Below, piece by piece: positions 252 through 9,182 of a stretch of DNA of 9,182 nucleotides. Source of the stretch: a virus (Duplodnaviria > Heunggongvirae > Uroviricota > Caudoviricetes). Each line of letters begins with the position of its first letter. Position 1 is the first letter of the stretch. A program made the translations under genes and the position numbers. Below the pieces are notes generated by a model. The model made no database searches. It saw only the letters and a program-made list of their open reading frames with translations, and was not told where the DNA came from. The stretch is taken from the IMG/VR virus record IMGVR_UViG_2651869781_000012; one strand, 5' to 3'.

Positions 252-794
252 TTACTTGTCTTTATCCGGCTGAAACTTATCAGGCACATTTCCGGTAGTT
301 TCCATCAGATAATCGGACAGCATTCGCGGGATGTTTTCATCAAGTTTTGTGCATGCGTTACAGGCTCTGACAACTTCTTTTTTCAGGCCATCCAGCATGA
401 CGGGGGTCATCTGTGGGAAGCTCCTTTGCATAGTAAGCGGGAGGCTGTCCATGATTGATGAAATCTGACTCGCCAGTTTTGAAAGCGCGTACATGCAAAA
501 CTCTGTATCAATCACGTCACCGCGATCGCGCTCGTTTTTAAGTTCCTGCGCCTCCGCCTGTGCTGTCAGTAATCTGATCCTGACTCGTAAGAGTTCATCA
601 TCATCAATCTCGCCTTTGTCGTTTGTAAGCTGGCTAATTGCATTGTTAACCCTATTGTCTATCACGCTGGCAACATCATAAAACGCCTCACGGCCTTTAC
701 GTTCAACGGGAGTCACTCCCCACTTGTCGAATGCTGTAGCACTTACCCGGCAGCTTTGCGCCATGGTTTTTTTGTTCATCAGGTGCGATTTCAT
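252..794 (-). CDS. Terminase small subunit, lambda Nu1-like
   Basis: 180-aa ORF. The C-terminal two thirds resemble lambda Nu1 as recalled from memory (ours ...LTAQAEAQELKNERD...FCMYALSKLASQISSIMDSLPLTMQRSFPQ...IPRMLSDYLMETTG versus lambda ...LTRAQADAQELKNARD...FCTFVLSRIAGEIASILDGLPLSVQRRFPE...IPGLLSEYIEQSG). The N-terminal HTH region is alignable but divergent. ATG at 794 is preceded by a weak GGGA; in-frame alternatives are TTG at 797 and ATG at 779 or 764. The gene starts about 135 bp downstream of cosN, as in lambda. Confidence 0.85.
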   Translation of the reverse strand: MKSHLMNKKTMAQSCRVSATAFDKWGVTPVERKGREAFYDVASVIDNRVNNAISQLTNDKGEIDDDELLRVRIRLLTAQAEAQELKNERDRGDVIDTEFCMYALSKLASQISSIMDSLPLTMQRSFPQMTPVMLDGLKKEVVRACNACTKLDENIPRMLSDYLMETTGNVPDKFQPDKDK

Positions 795-822
795 CAATAT
801 CCCAACTTGGTCAAGGTTTCAG

Positions 823-838
823 GTTGGTGTGTTGGTGT
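823..838. repeat. Tandem direct repeat GTTGGTGT x2 in the cosB-equivalent interval
   Basis: Plus strand 823-830 and 831-838 are both GTTGGTGT. A nearby (ACC)n tract lies at about 881-896. Both sit between cosN and the Nu1-like start. Confidence 0.5.
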
Positions 839-927
839 TATCTTTCCCTTTTTATTCATGGAGATAGAGCAAACAACAAAACCACCACCACCACCCTGAA
901 AAAGCTCATAAATAGCGAAAAACCGCG

Positions 928-939
928 AGGTCGCCGCCC
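928..939 (-). other. cosN-like cohesive-end site (lambda-type cos)
   Basis: The minus strand reads GGGCGGCGACCT, identical to the lambda 12-nt cohesive end as I recall it. Flanks on both sides also resemble lambda: cosQ side GGGTCCTTTCCGGCGATCCGGTAGGCTACG versus lambda GGGTCCTTTCCGGTGATCCGACAGGTTACG, and cosB side CGCGGTTTTTCGCTATTTATGA versus lambda CGCGGGTTTTCGCTATTTATGA. Confidence 0.8.
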
Positions 940-995
940 CGTAGCCTACCGGATCGCCGGAAAGGACCCGCCAGCCAGAACGGGCCCTAATTTCA

Positions 996-1379
996 TCAAC
1001 CAATCAACTTATAGCGACCATCCCGTGCATTGCGACGTACACGCTCAATCTTGAGGCATAGCGCCGCATCTGGCTTTTTTGGGACAGGTACGCGGCAATA
1101 TTCAGAAGCTCGAGGAATATTGTTTATCCAGTCGATCACTTCACTTAAATACCAGGCCTTACGCCCTTCCGTAACCTGTACGCGCTCGGGGAACTCTCCG
1201 CGAGCCTCAAGGTTTAGCAATGTGCGACGGCTAAGGGTAGTAAGTTCCATCACCTGATTCATATCAACAAGGCGTTCACTTAAACGCATTTTGTCAGCAA
1301 TAGCCTTTAATTCCTCTACTGCTGGATCCGGATACATCATTTCGGCAATTGGCTTAAGGTCATTGTAATGATTCTGCAT
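996..1379 (-). CDS. AlpA-family HTH DNA-binding protein (127 aa), function unknown
   Basis: Residues about 40-87 (LTTLSRRTLLNLEARGEFPERVQVTEGRKAWYLSEVIDWI) fit the AlpA/excisionase-type HTH pattern. SD AGGGGGA lies 4 nt upstream of ATG 1379. It starts 11 bp after the D-like stop and ends about 55 bp from cosN. Confidence 0.7.
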   Translation of the reverse strand: MQNHYNDLKPIAEMMYPDPAVEELKAIADKMRLSERLVDMNQVMELTTLSRRTLLNLEARGEFPERVQVTEGRKAWYLSEVIDWINNIPRASEYCRVPVPKKPDAALCLKIERVRRNARDGRYKLIG

Positions 1380-1390
1380 TGTATCCCCCT

Positions 1391-1732
1391 TTACACACGA
1401 GCCAGCGGCTGAACAGAAATACCTGAGCCAACAAACGCGGCAACCTTTGCCGACAGTTCTTTTACAGACTCAGGCCAGTTCAGAGCATCAACATTTAAAA
1501 CACCTGTCTTATAAACCTGTGCCTGTGTTTTTTTCGCTGTGTCGATTTGTACAGCGGAAACATAAACCGCTTTGCCTGCGCTCGTTCCATCCCATACCAC
1601 TAGCGCACCAGTTGCATCTTCCTGCATCAGTGGCGTAAACGCAGGTATTACCCCTTTATTGGCTGAAAATATCCCCAGCGTAGTAACCAGTGCTTCAGTG
1701 CCAGACATGAGTTCAGTGTAATGAGTAGCCAT
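1391..1732 (-). CDS. Head decoration protein, lambda gpD-like
   Basis: 113 aa. TPLMQEDATGALVVWDGTSAGKAVYVSAV and ...NWPESV...AAFVGSGISVQ parallel lambda gpD [29 protein letters not shown] and ...LWPEAA...TAFAGTAISIV (from memory). SD GGGGGAG precedes the ATG; the start is 9 bp after the capsid gene stop. Confidence 0.85.
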   Translation of the reverse strand: MATHYTELMSGTEALVTTLGIFSANKGVIPAFTPLMQEDATGALVVWDGTSAGKAVYVSAVQIDTAKKTQAQVYKTGVLNVDALNWPESVKELSAKVAAFVGSGISVQPLARV

Positions 1733-1741
1733 TGCTCCCCC

Positions 1742-2788
1742 TTAGCCAATGCGAACGGTAACAAAACGATTGATGCGGGCCGGTATTGGCTGTGGTGCTG
1801 AATGTGTCTGCACATATTCAATAGCCGGATCACCAGGCACAATATAGTTTTTCGGTACAAGTTCGGCTTTAGTCAGCCCCATCCGGATTAGCTCCGGATC
1901 CTGAATACCGCCATAAGCGACAATCCCCTGAAGAGCCGTATTGCCAAGCACCATCAAATCAGGATCAAGGAAATATTTTTCAGTTCCGTCCTCGTCGGTA
2001 TAACGCCCGCTGTAAACAACAATCGCAACATCGCCCATATACCCTTTAAAACTCACCGAATCACCAAGGTCTTTAAGGGCCGTTTCCAGTTCGGAATTAG
2101 AACCACGACGAGTATCCAGAGCCTCTTTTATCGCCCTGAATGAACGGTATTTCTTCCATACATTACCGCCCATAATGATAATATTAGTGACGCCCTCACT
2201 AAATTCTGCGTAGCTCTCAATATCATCATTTGGATCAAAAGCTTCTTTATCCTTACCTGACCACTCAGCACCGCCAGACTGAGTGATGATATTTTGTGGT
2301 TTAATATTCCAGTCCAGCTCATAACGTTCAATACCATCGCCCTCAATGATATTTTTCCCCGTTGTGATTGCCTGAACGGCAAGCCATTCAATACGTGCAC
2401 GAATAGCTTTAGCCTGATTTACAATCGCCTGTTTAACTTTAATATTACGCGCTCCAAAAGCATTGTATTGCTCAGGTGATACACCAGCAGGGCGCACAGC
2501 TAACTTATTTGGATCAATGCTGCTTTTCGGTTTCATATAGCCAGGGCGAATTGTTTTTGATTCGTATCCCTCATCTCGTGAAACTTTACTGCCCACCATA
2601 GGAGAGCAAAACGCCGCGATCGGGATATTTGGATCGTCGATCGTATCAAGAATAATGTCTCTCGATTCAAACATTACCGAGCGAGTGAAAAACAAACTGG
2701 TAAACAACGCATTTAATTTTTTTTGCACATCTTCAGCATTAGCCACCTGCACAAGCTGTGTAGGCGAATATAAGTCAACCATACTCAT
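1742..2788 (-). CDS. Major capsid protein, lambda gpE-like
   Basis: Long identical runs with lambda gpE as recalled (ITQSGG.EWS..DK...DP.DDIE.YA...GV.NII, FRSF.A.KE.LDTRRGSNSELETA.KDLG..VS.KG..GDVAIVVYSG.Y, MVLGNT). Both proteins begin MSM. Start at 2788 (MSM) or 2782; AAGAGG sits 6 nt upstream of 2782. The six-frame ORF's 5' extension to 2869 is unlikely to be coding. Confidence 0.9.
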   Translation of the reverse strand: MSMVDLYSPTQLVQVANAEDVQKKLNALFTSLFFTRSVMFESRDIILDTIDDPNIPIAAFCSPMVGSKVSRDEGYESKTIRPGYMKPKSSIDPNKLAVRPAGVSPEQYNAFGARNIKVKQAIVNQAKAIRARIEWLAVQAITTGKNIIEGDGIERYELDWNIKPQNIITQSGGAEWSGKDKEAFDPNDDIESYAEFSEGVTNIIIMGGNVWKKYRSFRAIKEALDTRRGSNSELETALKDLGDSVSFKGYMGDVAIVVYSGRYTDEDGTEKYFLDPDLMVLGNTALQGIVAYGGIQDPELIRMGLTKAELVPKNYIVPGDPAIEYVQTHSAPQPIPARINRFVTVRIG

Positions 2789-2955
2789 CCTCTTTACATT
2801 CATTACAAATAATTGTGAATATATTCTATTACCGATGTCTGCTATGCGAATACATGCAACCAAGTGCAATGTTGTATAAAATATGCCGTGACAACTTCAG
2901 TGCTGATAATTCGTGTTAATGTATTTACTTCCTTTGGTCGGGATTTATGTAGCAT

Positions 2956-3951: not shown

Positions 3952-5769
3952 TTAATTTTTGCTATCGTCATTAGTGACCGATACACATGATGGCATCCAG
4001 TCTTCTGATTCCTCCGTCAGTGTCACGTTTGAACGCAAACCGTGCTTCGTTTTCCGTTTCATATACTCCCTGCCATATTCCGCCATTGCCCCCGGCATAT
4101 CTTTACCGAAGCGCGTCAGTGTTACAGGTTTACCAAACCCATGTGCCTTCATATAAGCCAGATAGGCATGATAGAGATACCTGCGCGGGCTGAATGGCAC
4201 AATTTCAGCATTACCCACTAACAGGCCATCACACATTACCGACGCCATGAGATAGCCGCAGAAGTCCACCAGCGAATCACCTTCACGCTTTATCGCGAGT
4301 GCTTCTTCTGATTTCTGCTGCTCATATAAAAGGCGTCTGGCTTCGTCCTGGTCAGCAAACCGTGTAAGCAGATGACGAATCACTACCGCCAGCTCACCTT
4401 CTATTTTTTCCGCCAGCATTGAATCGCGTTCGTTCTCCGGTACAACTTCCGAAAAATTGAATATCACCCGACGGCGCGAGATCCCCCCACTGCGGTCACT
4501 GAATGACATAGCGTTATTGTTAACCGCCAGCACTACTGCCGGGATACGCGTTGAATATGGGGCTTTATGTTTCGGGTCGATTGCCACCTTGTCACCGCCT
4601 GTAATAGCCTTAATTCCCGCCCCATCACCAGCGTAGCGGGTCATATCCGGCATGATAATCAGCGAAAAGCCAACCACTAACGCGCGTTCCCTTGCATCTT
4701 CCAGCGCCTTCATGCTCGCTGATACTGTATTAGCCTTACCCGCCAGCATGGTGCAAATCTCCGCCATCACGCTTTTACCACTTCCCCCTGGACCTGTTAC
4801 CTCAATGAATAACTGCCAGTCGTACCGGTTCGCCAGCACCATGAATAATGCAGCCAGTACGCGATCCGCCTTGCGGTCATTCTCAGCCACCGAACGGCGT
4901 AACCACTTCCAGAAATTCGGCGCATGTGTTGCCAGCGTTTCCCCCTCTGCTGGTGGGCTGAAAGGTAATTCACTGGCAATTAACAACCAGTCGTTTTTGT
5001 TATGCTCCCGAAAATTACCTGTTCTGGTATCAAATACCCCGTTACTGAATCCAATCAGGTTACGGGCTGTATTCCCCATTACAGGCAAACTTAACTTCAT
5101 GGTATCGACCGCCGATTTAATGGCGTTCTGCGAATAGCTGATCTCCGCATCAATGAAAATCTGCGCCATAGCACGCTGTAACTCTTTATCCTGAACCGGC
5201 TCCCATACAACGCCGTTGTAATGGTGAACAGTGTCAGAGTCGGCATGAATCGCCAGTTCACCGCCATAATGTGCCAGGAGAACTTCGCCGCGTTGACTTG
5301 CTCCCATCTGGTTAAGCGCCAGTGATGAAGCGTTATCGTCTTTTACCCGCTCTTTTTTCTTTACAGGCAGTTCAACTACCTTTTTCTTTTCCGCCAGCTC
5401 TCCCCGCTCACGTTCCAGATATTCGCGCCAGTTCTCCCGTTTCTGGCTGTGCATTCCTTCAGGGTAATAATCAGCATCCCTGACACCTGCCGCTGCCAGT
5501 TTCTGCCCGATGGTATTAACAAGCCCCGGACGCAATAACCCCGCCTGGTAGAGACGCACGCGATAGCGTCCGTCCGGTACGATTTGCAGGTTGTCCAGTT
5601 CGGCAAGTTGTTGCTCTCCAAGCCAGACAGGTGGCACGTTATCGCCAGCCAGTCGCCCGTCCTGTTCCTGCCACTGCTTCGCATGTGCCCACGCATCACT
5701 ACCCGCAAAAATGATGACTTCCGTCATTTTGTCACGCGGCTGGTGTTTTAAATTTGGCGCTTTTTTCAT
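3952..5769 (-). CDS. Phage/plasmid primase-helicase, P4 alpha-like (SF3 helicase domain)
   Basis: About 605 aa. Walker A GPGGSGKS lies in the context FIEVTGPGGSGKSVMAEI, typical of P4-family primase C-terminal/D5-type helicase domains. ATG 5769 has GGAGAGAG upstream and overlaps the upstream gene stop (ATGA). The six-frame track start at 5784 is a GTG. Confidence 0.9.
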   Translation of the reverse strand: MKKAPNLKHQPRDKMTEVIIFAGSDAWAHAKQWQEQDGRLAGDNVPPVWLGEQQLAELDNLQIVPDGRYRVRLYQAGLLRPGLVNTIGQKLAAAGVRDADYYPEGMHSQKRENWREYLERERGELAEKKKVVELPVKKKERVKDDNASSLALNQMGASQRGEVLLAHYGGELAIHADSDTVHHYNGVVWEPVQDKELQRAMAQIFIDAEISYSQNAIKSAVDTMKLSLPVMGNTARNLIGFSNGVFDTRTGNFREHNKNDWLLIASELPFSPPAEGETLATHAPNFWKWLRRSVAENDRKADRVLAALFMVLANRYDWQLFIEVTGPGGSGKSVMAEICTMLAGKANTVSASMKALEDARERALVVGFSLIIMPDMTRYAGDGAGIKAITGGDKVAIDPKHKAPYSTRIPAVVLAVNNNAMSFSDRSGGISRRRVIFNFSEVVPENERDSMLAEKIEGELAVVIRHLLTRFADQDEARRLLYEQQKSEEALAIKREGDSLVDFCGYLMASVMCDGLLVGNAEIVPFSPRRYLYHAYLAYMKAHGFGKPVTLTRFGKDMPGAMAEYGREYMKRKTKHGLRSNVTLTEESEDWMPSCVSVTNDDSKN

Positions 5770-6065
5770 TTCTGCTCTCTCCACGCGGCAATCATGTTTT
5801 TCAGTTCCTGTAGTTTTTTATCCACATCCACACGTGACACATGGTTATTTCTGGAAGTCGGGATTTCCCGCCGGAATCTGCAAATAAAGATCTCCACGTT
5901 CAGCGAACTAAGAAATGAATATCCATCACGGATAAAATAAACACGGTCAAACATCAGTTCTTTTACCGTTACTCTGTTACCGTTCTTATCCAGATAAATA
6001 GCGCCGGGGATAATTTTGTGGTGTGCATAACCGCTGGCAGTCAAGCCAGATAAATATGTTCTCAT
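5766..6065 (-). CDS. Hypothetical protein (99 aa), operon member upstream of the primase
   Basis: ATG 6065 with GGGGA upstream; its stop overlaps the primase start. No recognisable motif. Confidence 0.6.
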   Translation of the reverse strand: MRTYLSGLTASGYAHHKIIPGAIYLDKNGNRVTVKELMFDRVYFIRDGYSFLSSLNVEIFICRFRREIPTSRNNHVSRVDVDKKLQELKNMIAAWREQK

Positions 6066-6071
6066 GATTAT

Positions 6072-6392
6072 TTATCCCCGATTTGAATCAGTATTCGCTT
6101 TCTTTATGGCATTTAATGCATCTGTGGCATTTTCAATGGTGCACCGTAACGAAATATCAAACTGCCCAAGCATTGCCAGTAACAAACCGATATTACCCAT
6201 ATCAATGCGCATGGCCTTTTCGTCATAGTCCTCATTTTCTGACGCATGCCACATCAGGCTACCAATTGACGCAATACCCATTGATATATTGTCAGTAGCC
6301 CCATCCGCAGCGGAATAAACCTTTTTAGCAATATCATGCTCACAGTTAAAATGCGGATTAATCAGGTACTGGTAACTGGTCATGTCAGGCAT
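6072..6392 (-). CDS. Hypothetical protein (106 aa)
   Basis: ATG 6392 is preceded by AGGGGG at 6 nt spacing and overlaps the upstream ORF stop by 8 nt. No recognisable motif. Confidence 0.6.
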   Translation of the reverse strand: MPDMTSYQYLINPHFNCEHDIAKKVYSAADGATDNISMGIASIGSLMWHASENEDYDEKAMRIDMGNIGLLLAMLGQFDISLRCTIENATDALNAIKKANTDSNRG

Positions 6393-6588
6393 GGAACACC
6401 CCCTGACGAATACGGGCAGTAAATACCATCACGCAGCCATCAGGAGATTGCTGGCGAGCTTCCTGTTCGCTGGTGGCCTCAATGTGAATCACGCGCGGTT
6501 GTGCGGTGCTCAGGGCGATAAAACGCCAGATGTATTTATTCAGGTTGTGCGAGTCCCGCCCTTGCGGGTGTGTGGTATGATTTAACAT
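6385..6588 (-). CDS. Hypothetical protein (67 aa), first gene of the primase operon
   Basis: ATG 6588 is preceded by GAGGT at 4 nt spacing. This is the C-terminal 67 codons of the 306-aa six-frame ORF, whose upstream part overlaps the plus-strand genes and promoter region and is probably not coding. Confidence 0.5.
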   Translation of the reverse strand: MLNHTTHPQGRDSHNLNKYIWRFIALSTAQPRVIHIEATSEQEARQQSPDGCVMVFTARIRQGVFHA

Positions 6589-6673
6589 AGCTACCTCGAT
6601 ACGCTTTCTATCGTTGGTGGTTAGAAGCCCTGCGAGTGGTAACGACACTTGCGGGGCTTTGCATTTATGCACC

Positions 6674-6757
6674 TTGACAACCTCAAGGTGTGGCCCACTA
6701 CATTCTTTAGGTGTGGCCCACGTCAAGAGTTTTATTTGTGCTTTTTCTGTGTATACT
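6674..6757 (+). promoter_or_regulatory. Divergent promoter/operator region with two copies of GGTGTGGCCCAC
   Basis: TTGACA at 6674-6679. Direct repeats GGTGTGGCCCAC at 6687-6698 and 6710-6721, each containing the near-palindrome GTGGCCCAC. TATACT at 6752-6757 lies about 30 bp upstream of the RHH gene ATG. The region sits between divergently oriented genes at 6588 (-) and 6788 (+). Confidence 0.4.
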
Positions 6758-6787
6758 GTCCCCCACCAATCCAACAGAGGAATAGAA

Positions 6788-6967
6788 ATGGCAACGGGTA
6801 CAACAAACGCAAAATCACAAGCTCTAAAGGCTCGTGTACCACACGAAATAGTAAACGCCATGGAATCAGTGAAAGAATCAGGCGAAAGCACATCACAATT
6901 CATCATTGCGTCAATGCAAGGCGAGATCAAACGCCGCCAGCGACGCAAAGCCAAGGAGTCAGAATAA
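6788..6967 (+). CDS. Ribbon-helix-helix (CopG/Arc-like) DNA-binding protein, 59 aa
   Basis: AGAGG at 6776-6780 precedes ATG 6788. The sequence KSQALKARVPHEIVNAMESVKESGESTSQFIIASMQGEIKRRQRR fits a beta-strand plus two helices RHH layout. Transcribed divergently from the primase operon. Confidence 0.6.
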   Translation: MATGTTNAKSQALKARVPHEIVNAMESVKESGESTSQFIIASMQGEIKRRQRRKAKESE

Positions 6968-7024
6968 TCACTATCAGCGCCGTGGTGTGAGTAACTACGG
7001 CGCATTGCTATGCAGGTGCTTACC

Positions 7025-7204
7025 ATGAACGATAAAGAGTTAAAAAAAACACCACCACAAACACTGAAAGGACAGCGCAAAAAGATAGCGCATGAGCATG
7101 AATCAGAAAGATTCGCCCCCTGTTCTTTTGCTCTTGAGAAATTCCTTAAGGAGCACAAGAAAAAGCTATCATTGCAAACCTGGGAACGAACCGAATCTGA
7201 CTGA
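7025..7204 (+). CDS. Hypothetical small lysine-rich protein (59 aa); coding status uncertain
   Basis: ATG 7025 is preceded by AGGTG (7014-7018). It lies between the RHH gene and the plus-strand terminator. Highly charged, no recognisable motif. An alternative ATG is at 7010. Confidence 0.3.
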   Translation: MNDKELKKTPPQTLKGQRKKIAHEHESERFAPCSFALEKFLKEHKKKLSLQTWERTESD

Positions 7205-7268
7205 TCAAATTGCCCACCAGCCAGCAAATCGCTATGATGTTCGGGCTTATGTTTAGTGTTTTCCCATT

Positions 7269-7297
7269 GGCGACCGCCCCCGGTCGCCTTTGTTTTA
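7269..7297 (+). terminator. Rho-independent terminator
   Basis: Stem GGCGACCG(7269-7276), loop CCCC, stem CGGTCGCC(7281-7288), then TTTGTTTT(7289-7296). It lies between convergent plus-strand genes and the alpA stop at 7316. Confidence 0.6.
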
Positions 7298-7315
7298 TAT
7301 GTCATATGCTCCCCT

Positions 7316-7525
7316 TTACGCTGCCTTACCTGAATTAATGCGATCCCGGCTTTTAACCCATTCCATAACCTCGGACAGCAGCCAACCTACAGAACGCCCC
7401 CCCAGATTAAGACGTGACGGAAAGCATCCTTTTTTCTCCAGTTCATAGCGTGTAGTGCGACACACTCCAGTTAACTTACGACATTCATCCTCACGGATTA
7501 CGCGATCTTCATTTATTTCACGCAT
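7316..7525 (-). CDS. alpA: AlpA-family transcriptional regulator
   Basis: 69 aa. LTGVCRTTRYELEKKGCFPSRLNLGGRSVGWLLSEVMEWV matches the AlpA HTH pattern. Same orientation as the integrase, with an AT-rich upstream region. Confidence 0.85.
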   Translation of the reverse strand: MREINEDRVIREDECRKLTGVCRTTRYELEKKGCFPSRLNLGGRSVGWLLSEVMEWVKSRDRINSGKAA

Positions 7526-7943: not shown

Positions 7944-9182
7944 TCAAGAATTTTGGGTGTAAATTCGCGGGGCCATAACAACGATTTTTTCATCATTGTT
8001 CTGGAGAAGCTCGAGACGGTCTACCCATAGATTAAGAGCATCACGTTTTGCATCAAGATAACGGGAGTGATTATAGACTCGTTGCATCCCCGGCATCTGG
8101 TGGGCGGTAAGCTGCTCGACAATATGCGGATCCACGCCTAAATCGTTCAGCATGGTTGTAAATGTGTGCCGGATGTCATGCAACGACCAAGGGGCTTGAT
8201 TAATGCGTCTGTGTGCCGTTCTTCCGTACTCTGATACGGATGATTGCCCTTTCAGTTCTCCAAGCAATAAGCCCGTGTGCCTGTTCTTCTCCACCAGCTT
8301 CGTGACGAACGGCAAAATGCTTTCCGGTATTGGCCTGAATATGGCGACCTTCGTTTTGCTGTGCTCCTTCGGTACTGTCCAGAGCATTTCTTTAAAATCC
8401 CACTCCTGCACCTCAGAGCGCCTTAGCTCGGTGGTACGGCATCCAAAAACAATCAGGAGGCGAATTAGGGCGCTGTAGTACGGCGGGAATATTTTGTCAT
8501 CCAGAGCGCGGAGTAATTCCCCAAGCTCCTTGTTTGTTAGTACGCGCTCGCTCACTTCTGCTTTTTTTCCCACATCACCGACAACCATATCATCAAGAAC
8601 GTTGCTGATTGCGTATCGTCGTTTTCGGCAGTACTTAAGCGCCTGTTTGCATACCTGTAGCAAAAATCCGGCAGATACCGGGCTTCGCTTTGCCATCTGG
8701 TCAAAACATGTCAACCAGTGCCGTAGCTCGCATTTTTCCAACGGCATAGCGCCAATCTGGCTGATTATGTGTTTATTGATCCGGCTTTTCAGTGATTCGT
8801 AGTCAGTGCGCTTTTCCTTTGCATACGATTCAAGCCAGTAAGTAAGCGCTTCCTTAACTGTCACGGGGGCTAACGCATCCTGTACAGCACGATTAAGCTC
8901 ATAGCGCGGATTTTTCCCCTCAGCCAGCCAGGCGCGACACTGTGCTGCTTTTTCCCTGGCTGCTTTCAGGCTCAGATCGGGATAATTGCCCAGTCTCAGA
9001 CGTTCCGGTGATACCTGCCTACCAGTTCCGGCCCTGTAAGTGAAATACCAGGTTAACAGGCCGCTGGTGGAATGTCTTACGCTAAGATTGCCACCGTCAT
9101 TAAAAAAGGCGTTTTTTGTGGTTGGTGATCCGCTTAATTTTCGTAAAAGAGTGTCGCTAAGTCTATGAATTGCGCTGCTCAT
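7944..9182 (-). CDS. int: Tyrosine recombinase / integrase, P4-type
   Basis: 412 aa. The N-terminal arm-binding-like region (DGGNLSVRHSTSGLLTWYFTYR...LGNYPDLSLKAAREKA) and C-terminal catalytic motifs (HDIRHTFTT; ...QRVYNHSRY) fit the family. The ATG is the last three bases of the window, so an upstream start cannot be excluded. Confidence 0.9.
   Translation of the reverse strand: MSSAIHRLSDTLLRKLSGSPTTKNAFFNDGGNLSVRHSTSGLLTWYFTYRAGTGRQVSPERLRLGNYPDLSLKAAREKAAQCRAWLAEGKNPRYELNRAVQDALAPVTVKEALTYWLESYAKEKRTDYESLKSRINKHIISQIGAMPLEKCELRHWLTCFDQMAKRSPVSAGFLLQVCKQALKYCRKRRYAISNVLDDMVVGDVGKKAEVSERVLTNKELGELLRALDDKIFPPYYSALIRLLIVFGCRTTELRRSEVQEWDFKEMLWTVPKEHSKTKVAIFRPIPESILPFVTKLVEKNRHTGLLLGELKGQSSVSEYGRTAHRRINQAPWSLHDIRHTFTTMLNDLGVDPHIVEQLTAHQMPGMQRVYNHSRYLDAKRDALNLWVDRLELLQNNDEKIVVMAPRIYTQNS

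Follow-up and report, generated by a model that had tools for sequence, protein, structure and literature searches.

Three translationally coupled genes ahead of the primase in an Escherichia coli phage-inducible chromosomal island resemble the early operon of P4

In the left operon of P4 a series of small genes leads up to the gene of the primase alpha, and the order is vis - eta/kil - eps - orf151 - orf106 - alpha. The kil gene is nested in eta, and its product kills cells (summarised in PMC10111431). Another described system is the immI operon of P1 (c4 - icd - ant1/2), in which Icd inhibits cell division reversibly and is required for the expression of the downstream ant gene. Among the phage-inducible chromosomal islands (PICIs) of Gram-negative hosts, of which EcCICFT073 and EcCIEDL933 are examples, four zones are distinguished, i.e. 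integration, Bro, replication and late (PMC10111431). The role of AlpA in EcCICFT073 has been described as that of an activator, while the existence of a repressor was called unclear (PMC6092414). Finally, RgdR (ECs1581, with C1493 in strain CFT073) is an island protein that turns on LEE1 and type III secretion and also represses motility; its binding to DNA is non-specific (PMC3378721). Here we describe three small open reading frames (ORF1, ORF2 and ORF3) that occupy positions 5766-6588 of the IMG/VR virus record IMGVR_UViG_2651869781_000012, a stretch of 9,182 nucleotides which is called the window below. All three are on the minus strand and stand directly before a primase gene, at the border of the Bro and replication zones as defined in PMC10111431. 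We consider it probable, on balance, that they form the coupled head of the early (replication) operon in a PICI of the EcCICFT073 type, with ORF1 as a Kil/Icd protein, ORF3 as an RgdR-family protein and ORF2 as a modulator. The block would be mostly ordinary, as an early operon of the P4 kil-eps-alpha kind in its PICI form, with two of its three genes in named families.

ORF1 (6385-6588, 67 aa, basic, pI 9.3) is the first gene of the operon and begins at the ATG at 6588; the listing of open reading frames gives a longer frame for it, 6385-7305, which is treated below. It is followed by ORF2 (6072-6392, 106 aa, acidic, pI 4.6, predicted to be helical) and ORF3 (5766-6065, 99 aa, basic, pI 9.9). 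The preliminary description of the window, made from the letters of the DNA, had reported frames of 67, 106 and 99 aa stacked before the primase, the last of them overlapping the primase start, and our coordinates and junctions agree with it. The end of ORF1 and the start of ORF2 share 8 nt (ATGCCTGA), a gap of 6 nt lies between ORF2 and ORF3, and the TGA of ORF3 overlaps the primase ATG at 5769 as ATGA. Shine-Dalgarno-like motifs are found at every start (GAGG, GGGGG, GGGGA and GGAGAG). Conservation as coding sequence in relatives, which the same description had named as a check, was calculated as the pooled pairwise pN/pS and lies between 0.20 and 0.36, i.e. 0.20 for ORF1 (65 unique sequences), 0.34 for ORF2 (25) and 0.36 for ORF3 (20). 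NCBI PGAP calls all three as genes in relatives, and the 1-kb block of the three ORFs is matched in 1422 out of 5426 complete E. coli genomes; in 453 the match extends over at least 80% of its length. All three ORFs are real genes that evolve as coding sequence, and they are translationally coupled to each other and to the P4-type primase.

It is conspicuous that the gene order is the same as in the left operon of P4, i.e. small genes first and then a P4-family primase. The parallel with P4 that had been drawn earlier for part of this region extends along all of it: alpA corresponds to vis, the long frame with ORF1 to eta/kil, ORF2 to eps, ORF3 to orf151/orf106 and the primase gene to alpha. 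In both elements an ORF of about 65 codons that matches the NF033153 family is nested in a long frame, the next gene begins 8 nt before its stop, and the long frame starts right after the alpA/vis homologue. A candidate promoter within the long frame of the window would be a further parallel. The two elements also differ in several respects. In the window no C4/CI/isrK-type RNA was detected, and a putative protein-type operator pair is seen at the candidate promoter instead. The long frame of the window is antisense to a plus-strand gene of the YlcI/YnfO family, to a second small gene and to their terminator. Moreover, sequence and profile comparison led to the rejection of a relationship of ORF2 or ORF3 with eps, orf151 or orf106.

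The match of ORF1 to NF033153 (phage_ICD_like, 'host cell division inhibitor Icd-like') has 69.3 bits (E 2.2e-19) against a cut-off of 25. P1 Icd reaches 52.6 bits with the same profile, and a 65-codon ORF of P4 reaches 76.1 bits (E 1.6e-21). This P4 ORF comprises the last 65 codons of the frame annotated as 'cI gene product'. We take these codons to be kil (Forti et al. 1999, as summarised in PMC10111431). In a direct BLASTP comparison ORF1 and P1 Icd are 42% identical across 43 aa (E 6e-8). A tblastn search with ORF1 against all phage records gave one match, which was not P1, so the relationship with P1 Icd is remote. The genes for ORF1 and P1 Icd are both short leaders that overlap the start of the next gene. 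P1 Icd, however, has a C-terminal tail of ~20 aa that is missing in ORF1, the downstream gene in P1 is an antirepressor, and P1 uses the C4 antisense RNA that was not found in the window. Judged by the profile matches, ORF1 is a member of the Kil/Icd family and would correspond to P4 kil and P1 icd. Once the operon is switched on, ORF1 would most likely arrest host cell division or growth. The GAGG motif is 5 nt ahead of the ORF1 ATG and is kept in the variants.

Some observations on the family are added here. The PHROG families 6196, 1743 and 6928, which are Icd/Kil-like, are labelled 'transcriptional repressor'; this label seems to be inherited from the old annotation of the P4 cI-region protein (NP_042040.1) and to be no guide to function. 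In some database variants the Icd-like gene is fused in frame to the next gene, i.e. to ORF2 in P0002 (171 aa) and P0160 (324 aa) and to a family-A protein (see below) in locus L072 (3248-3679). These fusions may be either real or sequencing or assembly errors. The 'Icd' that occurs in the HE-PICI paper was dropped as a lead, as it denotes isocitrate dehydrogenase there.

ORF3 matches DUF4222 (PF13973) with 60.7 bits (cut-off 27, E 9.8e-17). In length (99 aa) and position it agrees with RgdR (ECs1581), which is encoded in the O157 island OI-51/CP-933C, and with C1493 of CFT073; these are likewise basic DUF4222 proteins whose genes lie immediately upstream of the primase gene and overlap it. 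The identity to ECs1581 and C1493 is only 31-34%, and the ORF3 of the window falls into a separate clade that always travels with ORF2. The RGD motif is not present, as residues 20-22 of ORF3 are P20-G21-A22; the RgdR clade itself varies at this motif (RGD, NGD, PGD, HGD and KGD). There are two allele classes of DUF4222 and mosaics between them. A scan of genome contigs for DUF4222 yielded just 2 loci. ORF3 is accordingly classified, by profile and position, as a divergent protein of the RgdR family. The effects on LEE and motility, and the non-specific binding to DNA, have been shown for just two members, ECs1581 and C1493.

In essentially all of 81 related loci the DUF4222 gene terminates where the primase gene starts, which points to a native role of DUF4222 in the island's own cycle. 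The predicted structure of ORF3 is a small basic barrel of the Tudor/SH3-like type with a helix after it. ORF3 would probably bind DNA without sequence specificity, and perhaps RNA polymerase, with possible effects on transcription or on the replication of the island, and it could affect host genes in the manner of RgdR. In this light the RgdR family, known only as virulence regulators, is a constant part of E. coli PICIs that is coupled to the primase and comes in two allele classes of very different sequence.

The preliminary description had seen no recognised motif in any of the three ORFs and had proposed sensitive profile searches and structure prediction. These gave families for ORF1 and ORF3, i.e. 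homology to known proteins in the case of ORF1 (Icd-like) and the DUF4222 domain and the position of RgdR in the case of ORF3, so the earlier statement holds for ORF2 but not for the other two. By the measure that this description had itself set for a refutation, these families count in part against its proposal. ORF2 is the genuinely uncharacterised protein among the three and represents a satellite-restricted family. No Pfam, NCBIfam, PADLOC or PDB match was obtained for it; for all three ORFs, the PADLOC-DB defence models gave no match at E up to 1, and sequence searches of the PDB gave nothing significant. Among the PHROGs, ORF2 belongs to phrog_15327 (E 7e-71), to which phrog_6805 is a distant relative. 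The protein is rare: it forms 16 clusters at 90% identity, nearly all from E. coli, in 5.8e9 proteins, and it has 20 matches in 1.84e9 representatives. Its DNA is present in 474 E. coli genomes, intact and always with at least 95% identity. The AF2 model is a helical hairpin of low confidence (pLDDT 65) and the protein is not membrane-like; a Foldseek search with this model gave generic helical hairpins at best (E 1.6) and no fold match. Remote relatives with 24-44% identity are full-length and share the conserved motif G.S.IG.LMF...Y...DM..IG. They are located 0-2 genes from an Icd-like gene, between alpA and primase, in 7 out of 7 satellite loci.

The space between the Icd-like gene and the DUF4222 gene is a slot of variable content and a length of 229-1130 nt. 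Where both can be seen, ORF2 is accompanied by the window-type allele of DUF4222 (26 out of 26 loci) and never by the RgdR-type allele. Other islands fill the slot with combinations of four other small acidic families, and the place of the single 106-aa gene of the window is taken by four small genes in CFT073 and by three in Sakai. The fillings recorded are ORF2 alone, A-C, A-B-A-B, C and others (L004 4050-4940 in CFT073, L005 3691-4299 in Sakai, and the IMG/VR loci L008-L087). A relationship of ORF2 with the slot families A, B, C and E was rejected, as the hhalign probabilities are at most 2.6%. The position of ORF2 would be a variable cargo slot in a chain of coupled genes. ORF2 would most likely act as a modulator that binds another protein, and Kil/Icd, DUF4222 and proteins of the helper or the host are the candidates for this partner. 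Since the slot is a shuffling region of small acidic proteins, a helper- or host-directed accessory function of ORF2 is plausible, and the slot is a reasonable place to seek new activities of this kind.

ORF1 is the end of a much longer frame on the minus strand, which has 306 codons from its first ATG (6385-7305) and is open from 7386. This ATG, at 7305, is 11 nt past the alpA stop and has GGGGAG just upstream. In 266 further codons upstream of ORF1 there are 0 stops in the frame of ORF1, versus 14 and 26 in the other two frames of the minus strand, and 0 out of 20000 shuffles keep the long frame open. Over the 600 nt preceding the Icd-like gene, the frame in phase with it lacks stops in 62 of the 81 related loci (25 out of 36 sequence clusters); in the other frames the median number of stops is 12-14, and they are open in none of the 81. 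The encoded amino acids follow a different pattern. There is no excess of third-position substitutions in the stretches of the long frame that are free of plus-strand genes (180/152/143 and 87/81/90), and the variants differ by frameshifting indels of 1-2 nt that add up to multiples of three. By these signs the amino-acid sequence of the long frame is apparently under no selection, and a genuine N-terminal protein domain was rejected as the main interpretation on the substitution and indel patterns.

A frame that stays open while its amino-acid sequence is not conserved is compatible with an eta-like role. The architecture is that of P4 eta/kil, for which the precedent is given in PMC10111431, and in P4 the frame is open from just after vis. 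By analogy with P4, we infer that ribosomes on the long frame would keep Rho from terminating the transcripts that read through from alpA, and that these ribosomes would then pass through ORF2 and ORF3 into the primase gene. ORF1 itself would be made from its own ribosome-binding site, on transcripts of an internal, operator-controlled promoter. In distant satellites a similar open extension precedes whichever gene heads the operon; in L092 and L093 it is fused to an ORF2-like first gene, not to an Icd-like one. Residues 54-95 of the long frame of CFT073 (L004 2752-4050) weakly match antirepressor families of the Bro/Ant type (E 6e-5 to 1e-2), and in Sakai a separate gene for 247 aa (ECs1576) stands before the Icd-like gene. 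The long frame may be descended from a Bro-type gene.

The putative internal promoter was located by eye from the sequence and an alignment of variants. It lies inside the long frame on the minus strand (6697-6726) and would consist of a -35 element TTGACG (6726-6721), an 18-nt spacer and a -10 element TGTAGT (6702-6697), the latter reading TATAGT in the relative L026. The -10 element is flanked by two exact 13-bp copies of GTGGGCCACACCT, for which the chance expectation is 0.13. These are putative operators on the minus strand: copy 1 (6709-6721) abuts the -35 element, and copy 2 (6686-6698) overlaps the -10 element and the start site. Both copies change together across the relatives (GTGGCTGACACCT, GTGTTTAACACCT, TGTGCGCACA), and the operator type tracks the allele of the divergent YlcI/YnfO-family gene, not that of AlpA; as the operators and ylcI are adjacent, linkage alone could contribute to this co-variation. 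The gene in question (6788-6967, plus strand) encodes 59 aa (NF041551, E 7.8e-19; phrog_949), and the substitution pattern by codon position within 6788-6967 fits this plus-strand gene. The concerted change of the two operator copies points to a candidate repressor-operator pair, and suggests the YlcI/YnfO-type protein as a candidate repressor of the operon, which would probably act on the internal promoter. Taken together, the long frame, the two operators and the YlcI/YnfO gene that varies with them yield a testable model of how the operon is repressed and switched on. Downstream of ylcI, on the same strand, are a hypothetical gene for 64 aa (7010-7204, phrog_21027, annotated in relatives) and the terminator (7269-7297).

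The 5' leader of ORF1 contains a hairpin (6625-6659, minus strand; fold z-score -2.1), in the stem of which three variants show compensatory changes (AAGTG/CACT, GGTG/CACC and ACTG/CAGT). It is followed by a strongly conserved stretch, GGGCTTCTAACCACCAACGATA. The hairpin has no Rfam match, and no immunity RNA of the C4/CI/isrK type was found by Rfam searches of the whole window (E up to 1) and of positions 6540-6800 (E up to 10).

We note that several of these results weigh against the reading of the block as a PICI counterpart of the P4 early operon. The lack of a detected C4/CI/isrK-type RNA means that the immunity mechanism of P4 is not simply copied here. The proposed promoter rests on weak consensus matches and is not reported by a strict consensus scan. 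ORF1 covers only the N-terminal two thirds of P1 Icd, and the ORF2 model, of low confidence and with no matching fold, is too weak to be of use. Moreover, most PICIs with a near-identical Icd-like gene lack ORF2, and ORF2 is therefore no obligatory partner of Kil/Icd.

Several other explanations were considered. The Icd-like/ORF2/DUF4222/primase operon could mainly be a phage-triggered module for growth arrest or abortive infection, with the Kil/Icd-like protein as the effector and the small genes as sensors or modulators. According to a preprint (10.1101/2023.04.06.535777), Icd-like/primase operons and P4 kil act as lethal effectors once triggered by a phage. In the case of the Icd-like operon the effect is reportedly abolished by removal of the Icd-like gene, and the P4 prophage is reported to kill upon expression of Abc1, perhaps via kil. 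EcCICFT073, for its part, interferes with lambda through genes then unidentified (PMC6092414). On the other hand, none of the three genes is matched by a PADLOC model, the ECOR61 locus of the preprint may be a different module, and the same data fit the ordinary induction of a satellite in which Kil is a by-product toxin. We give this explanation a low, though not negligible, probability. It is compatible with the P4-like early operon and does not exclude it, and given the preprint a role in interference is conceivable. A more elaborate version appears rather unlikely to us. Here ORF2 would found an undescribed class of early satellite proteins (phrog_15327/6805), which would work with Kil/Icd as a modulator, or would sense or target a protein of the helper phage, the Icd-ORF2-DUF4222-primase operon being a phage-triggered module of growth arrest or interference. 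In the same version the eta-like frame would stay open for no other purpose than to let ribosomes carry alpA read-through across the antisense cassette of the YlcI/YnfO-type repressor, and this repressor would be the 'missing' master repressor of the Gram-negative PICIs. A still lower probability is given to the derepression activity that the preliminary description had considered for these genes, i.e. a helper-prophage derepressor or antirepressor that induces or manipulates a lambdoid helper, encoded most plausibly by ORF2. ORF2 stands directly after the kil-like gene and overlaps it by 8 nt, as epsilon does in P4, it is small, acidic and helical like many protein-binding inhibitors, it sits in a slot with interchangeable small acidic proteins, and genes or remnants of the Bro/Ant type are found just upstream in related elements. 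But comparisons of sequences and profiles revealed no resemblance of ORF2 to epsilon, orf151 or orf106, and induction of EcCICFT073 runs the opposite way, the helper turning on alpA (PMC6092414). Homology with epsilon was rejected on all comparisons made: BLASTP and HMM searches gave nothing, epsilon belongs to PHROGs 10016/3688 and ORF2 to 15327/6805, and the hhalign probability is 0.1%. Thus ORF2 shares the position of epsilon, and the proposed derepressor activity found no support.

Two further alternatives concern the gene products themselves. ORF1 might be made as a full-length product of ~306 aa, i.e. as an N-terminally extended Icd-like protein whose extension has a sequence-specific function. 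This would agree with the open frame in most relatives, with the GGGGAG ahead of the ATG at 7305, with the long Icd-like proteins described by gene callers and in the preprint cited above, and with the weak Bro/Ant-like remnant in the CFT073 version. It is nevertheless very unlikely in our view: there is no third-position excess outside the plus-strand genes, the indels of 1-2 nt shift the local frame between variants, a bona fide YlcI gene and a plus-strand terminator lie on the strand opposite the extension, in distant satellites an extension of this kind is joined to another first gene, and ORF1 has a conserved ribosome-binding site of its own. That ORF2 is spurious, or decaying and functionless, is extremely improbable. 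Its narrow distribution (the 16 clusters, nearly all E. coli) and its low-confidence structure prediction could be read in this way, but the pN/pS is 0.34, the gene is intact in 474 genomes and translationally coupled on both sides, and full-length homologues with 24-44% identity and conserved motifs are found in the same neighbourhood of other satellites.

As for the element as a whole, the window is, judged by its gene content, an EcCICFT073-type PICI of E. coli. This assignment follows from the presence of int, alpA, primase, SSB, capsid E/D-like and Nu1-like genes and from the collinearity with EcCICFT073 and with the Sakai Sp7 (OI-51) island, whose layout is as in the window. An island of strain W619, located between clpS and cspD, is 97% identical to the window. 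The Icd/ORF2/DUF4222/primase block is present also in a capsid-forming PICI. The integrase gene occupies 7944-9182, and alpA, the satellite activator gene (7316-7525, minus strand; PF05930, E 9e-16), is directly upstream of the long frame. The gene after ORF1-ORF3 encodes the primase/helicase of the P4 family (3952-5769, minus strand), recognised by Pfam and NCBIfam matches (D5_N, DUF5906 and Pox_D5) and by phrog_864 (E 5e-192); its start at ATG 5769 agrees with the PGAP annotation in relatives. A gene for 81 aa and the SSB gene are also found in the window. The late region (252-2869, minus strand) encodes a lambda E-like capsid protein and a D-like decoration protein. In the same region, a Nu1-like homologue of the small terminase (252-797, minus strand) may be the packaging-redirection protein of this type of PICI, and a second AlpA-like protein is encoded at 996-1379 (minus strand).

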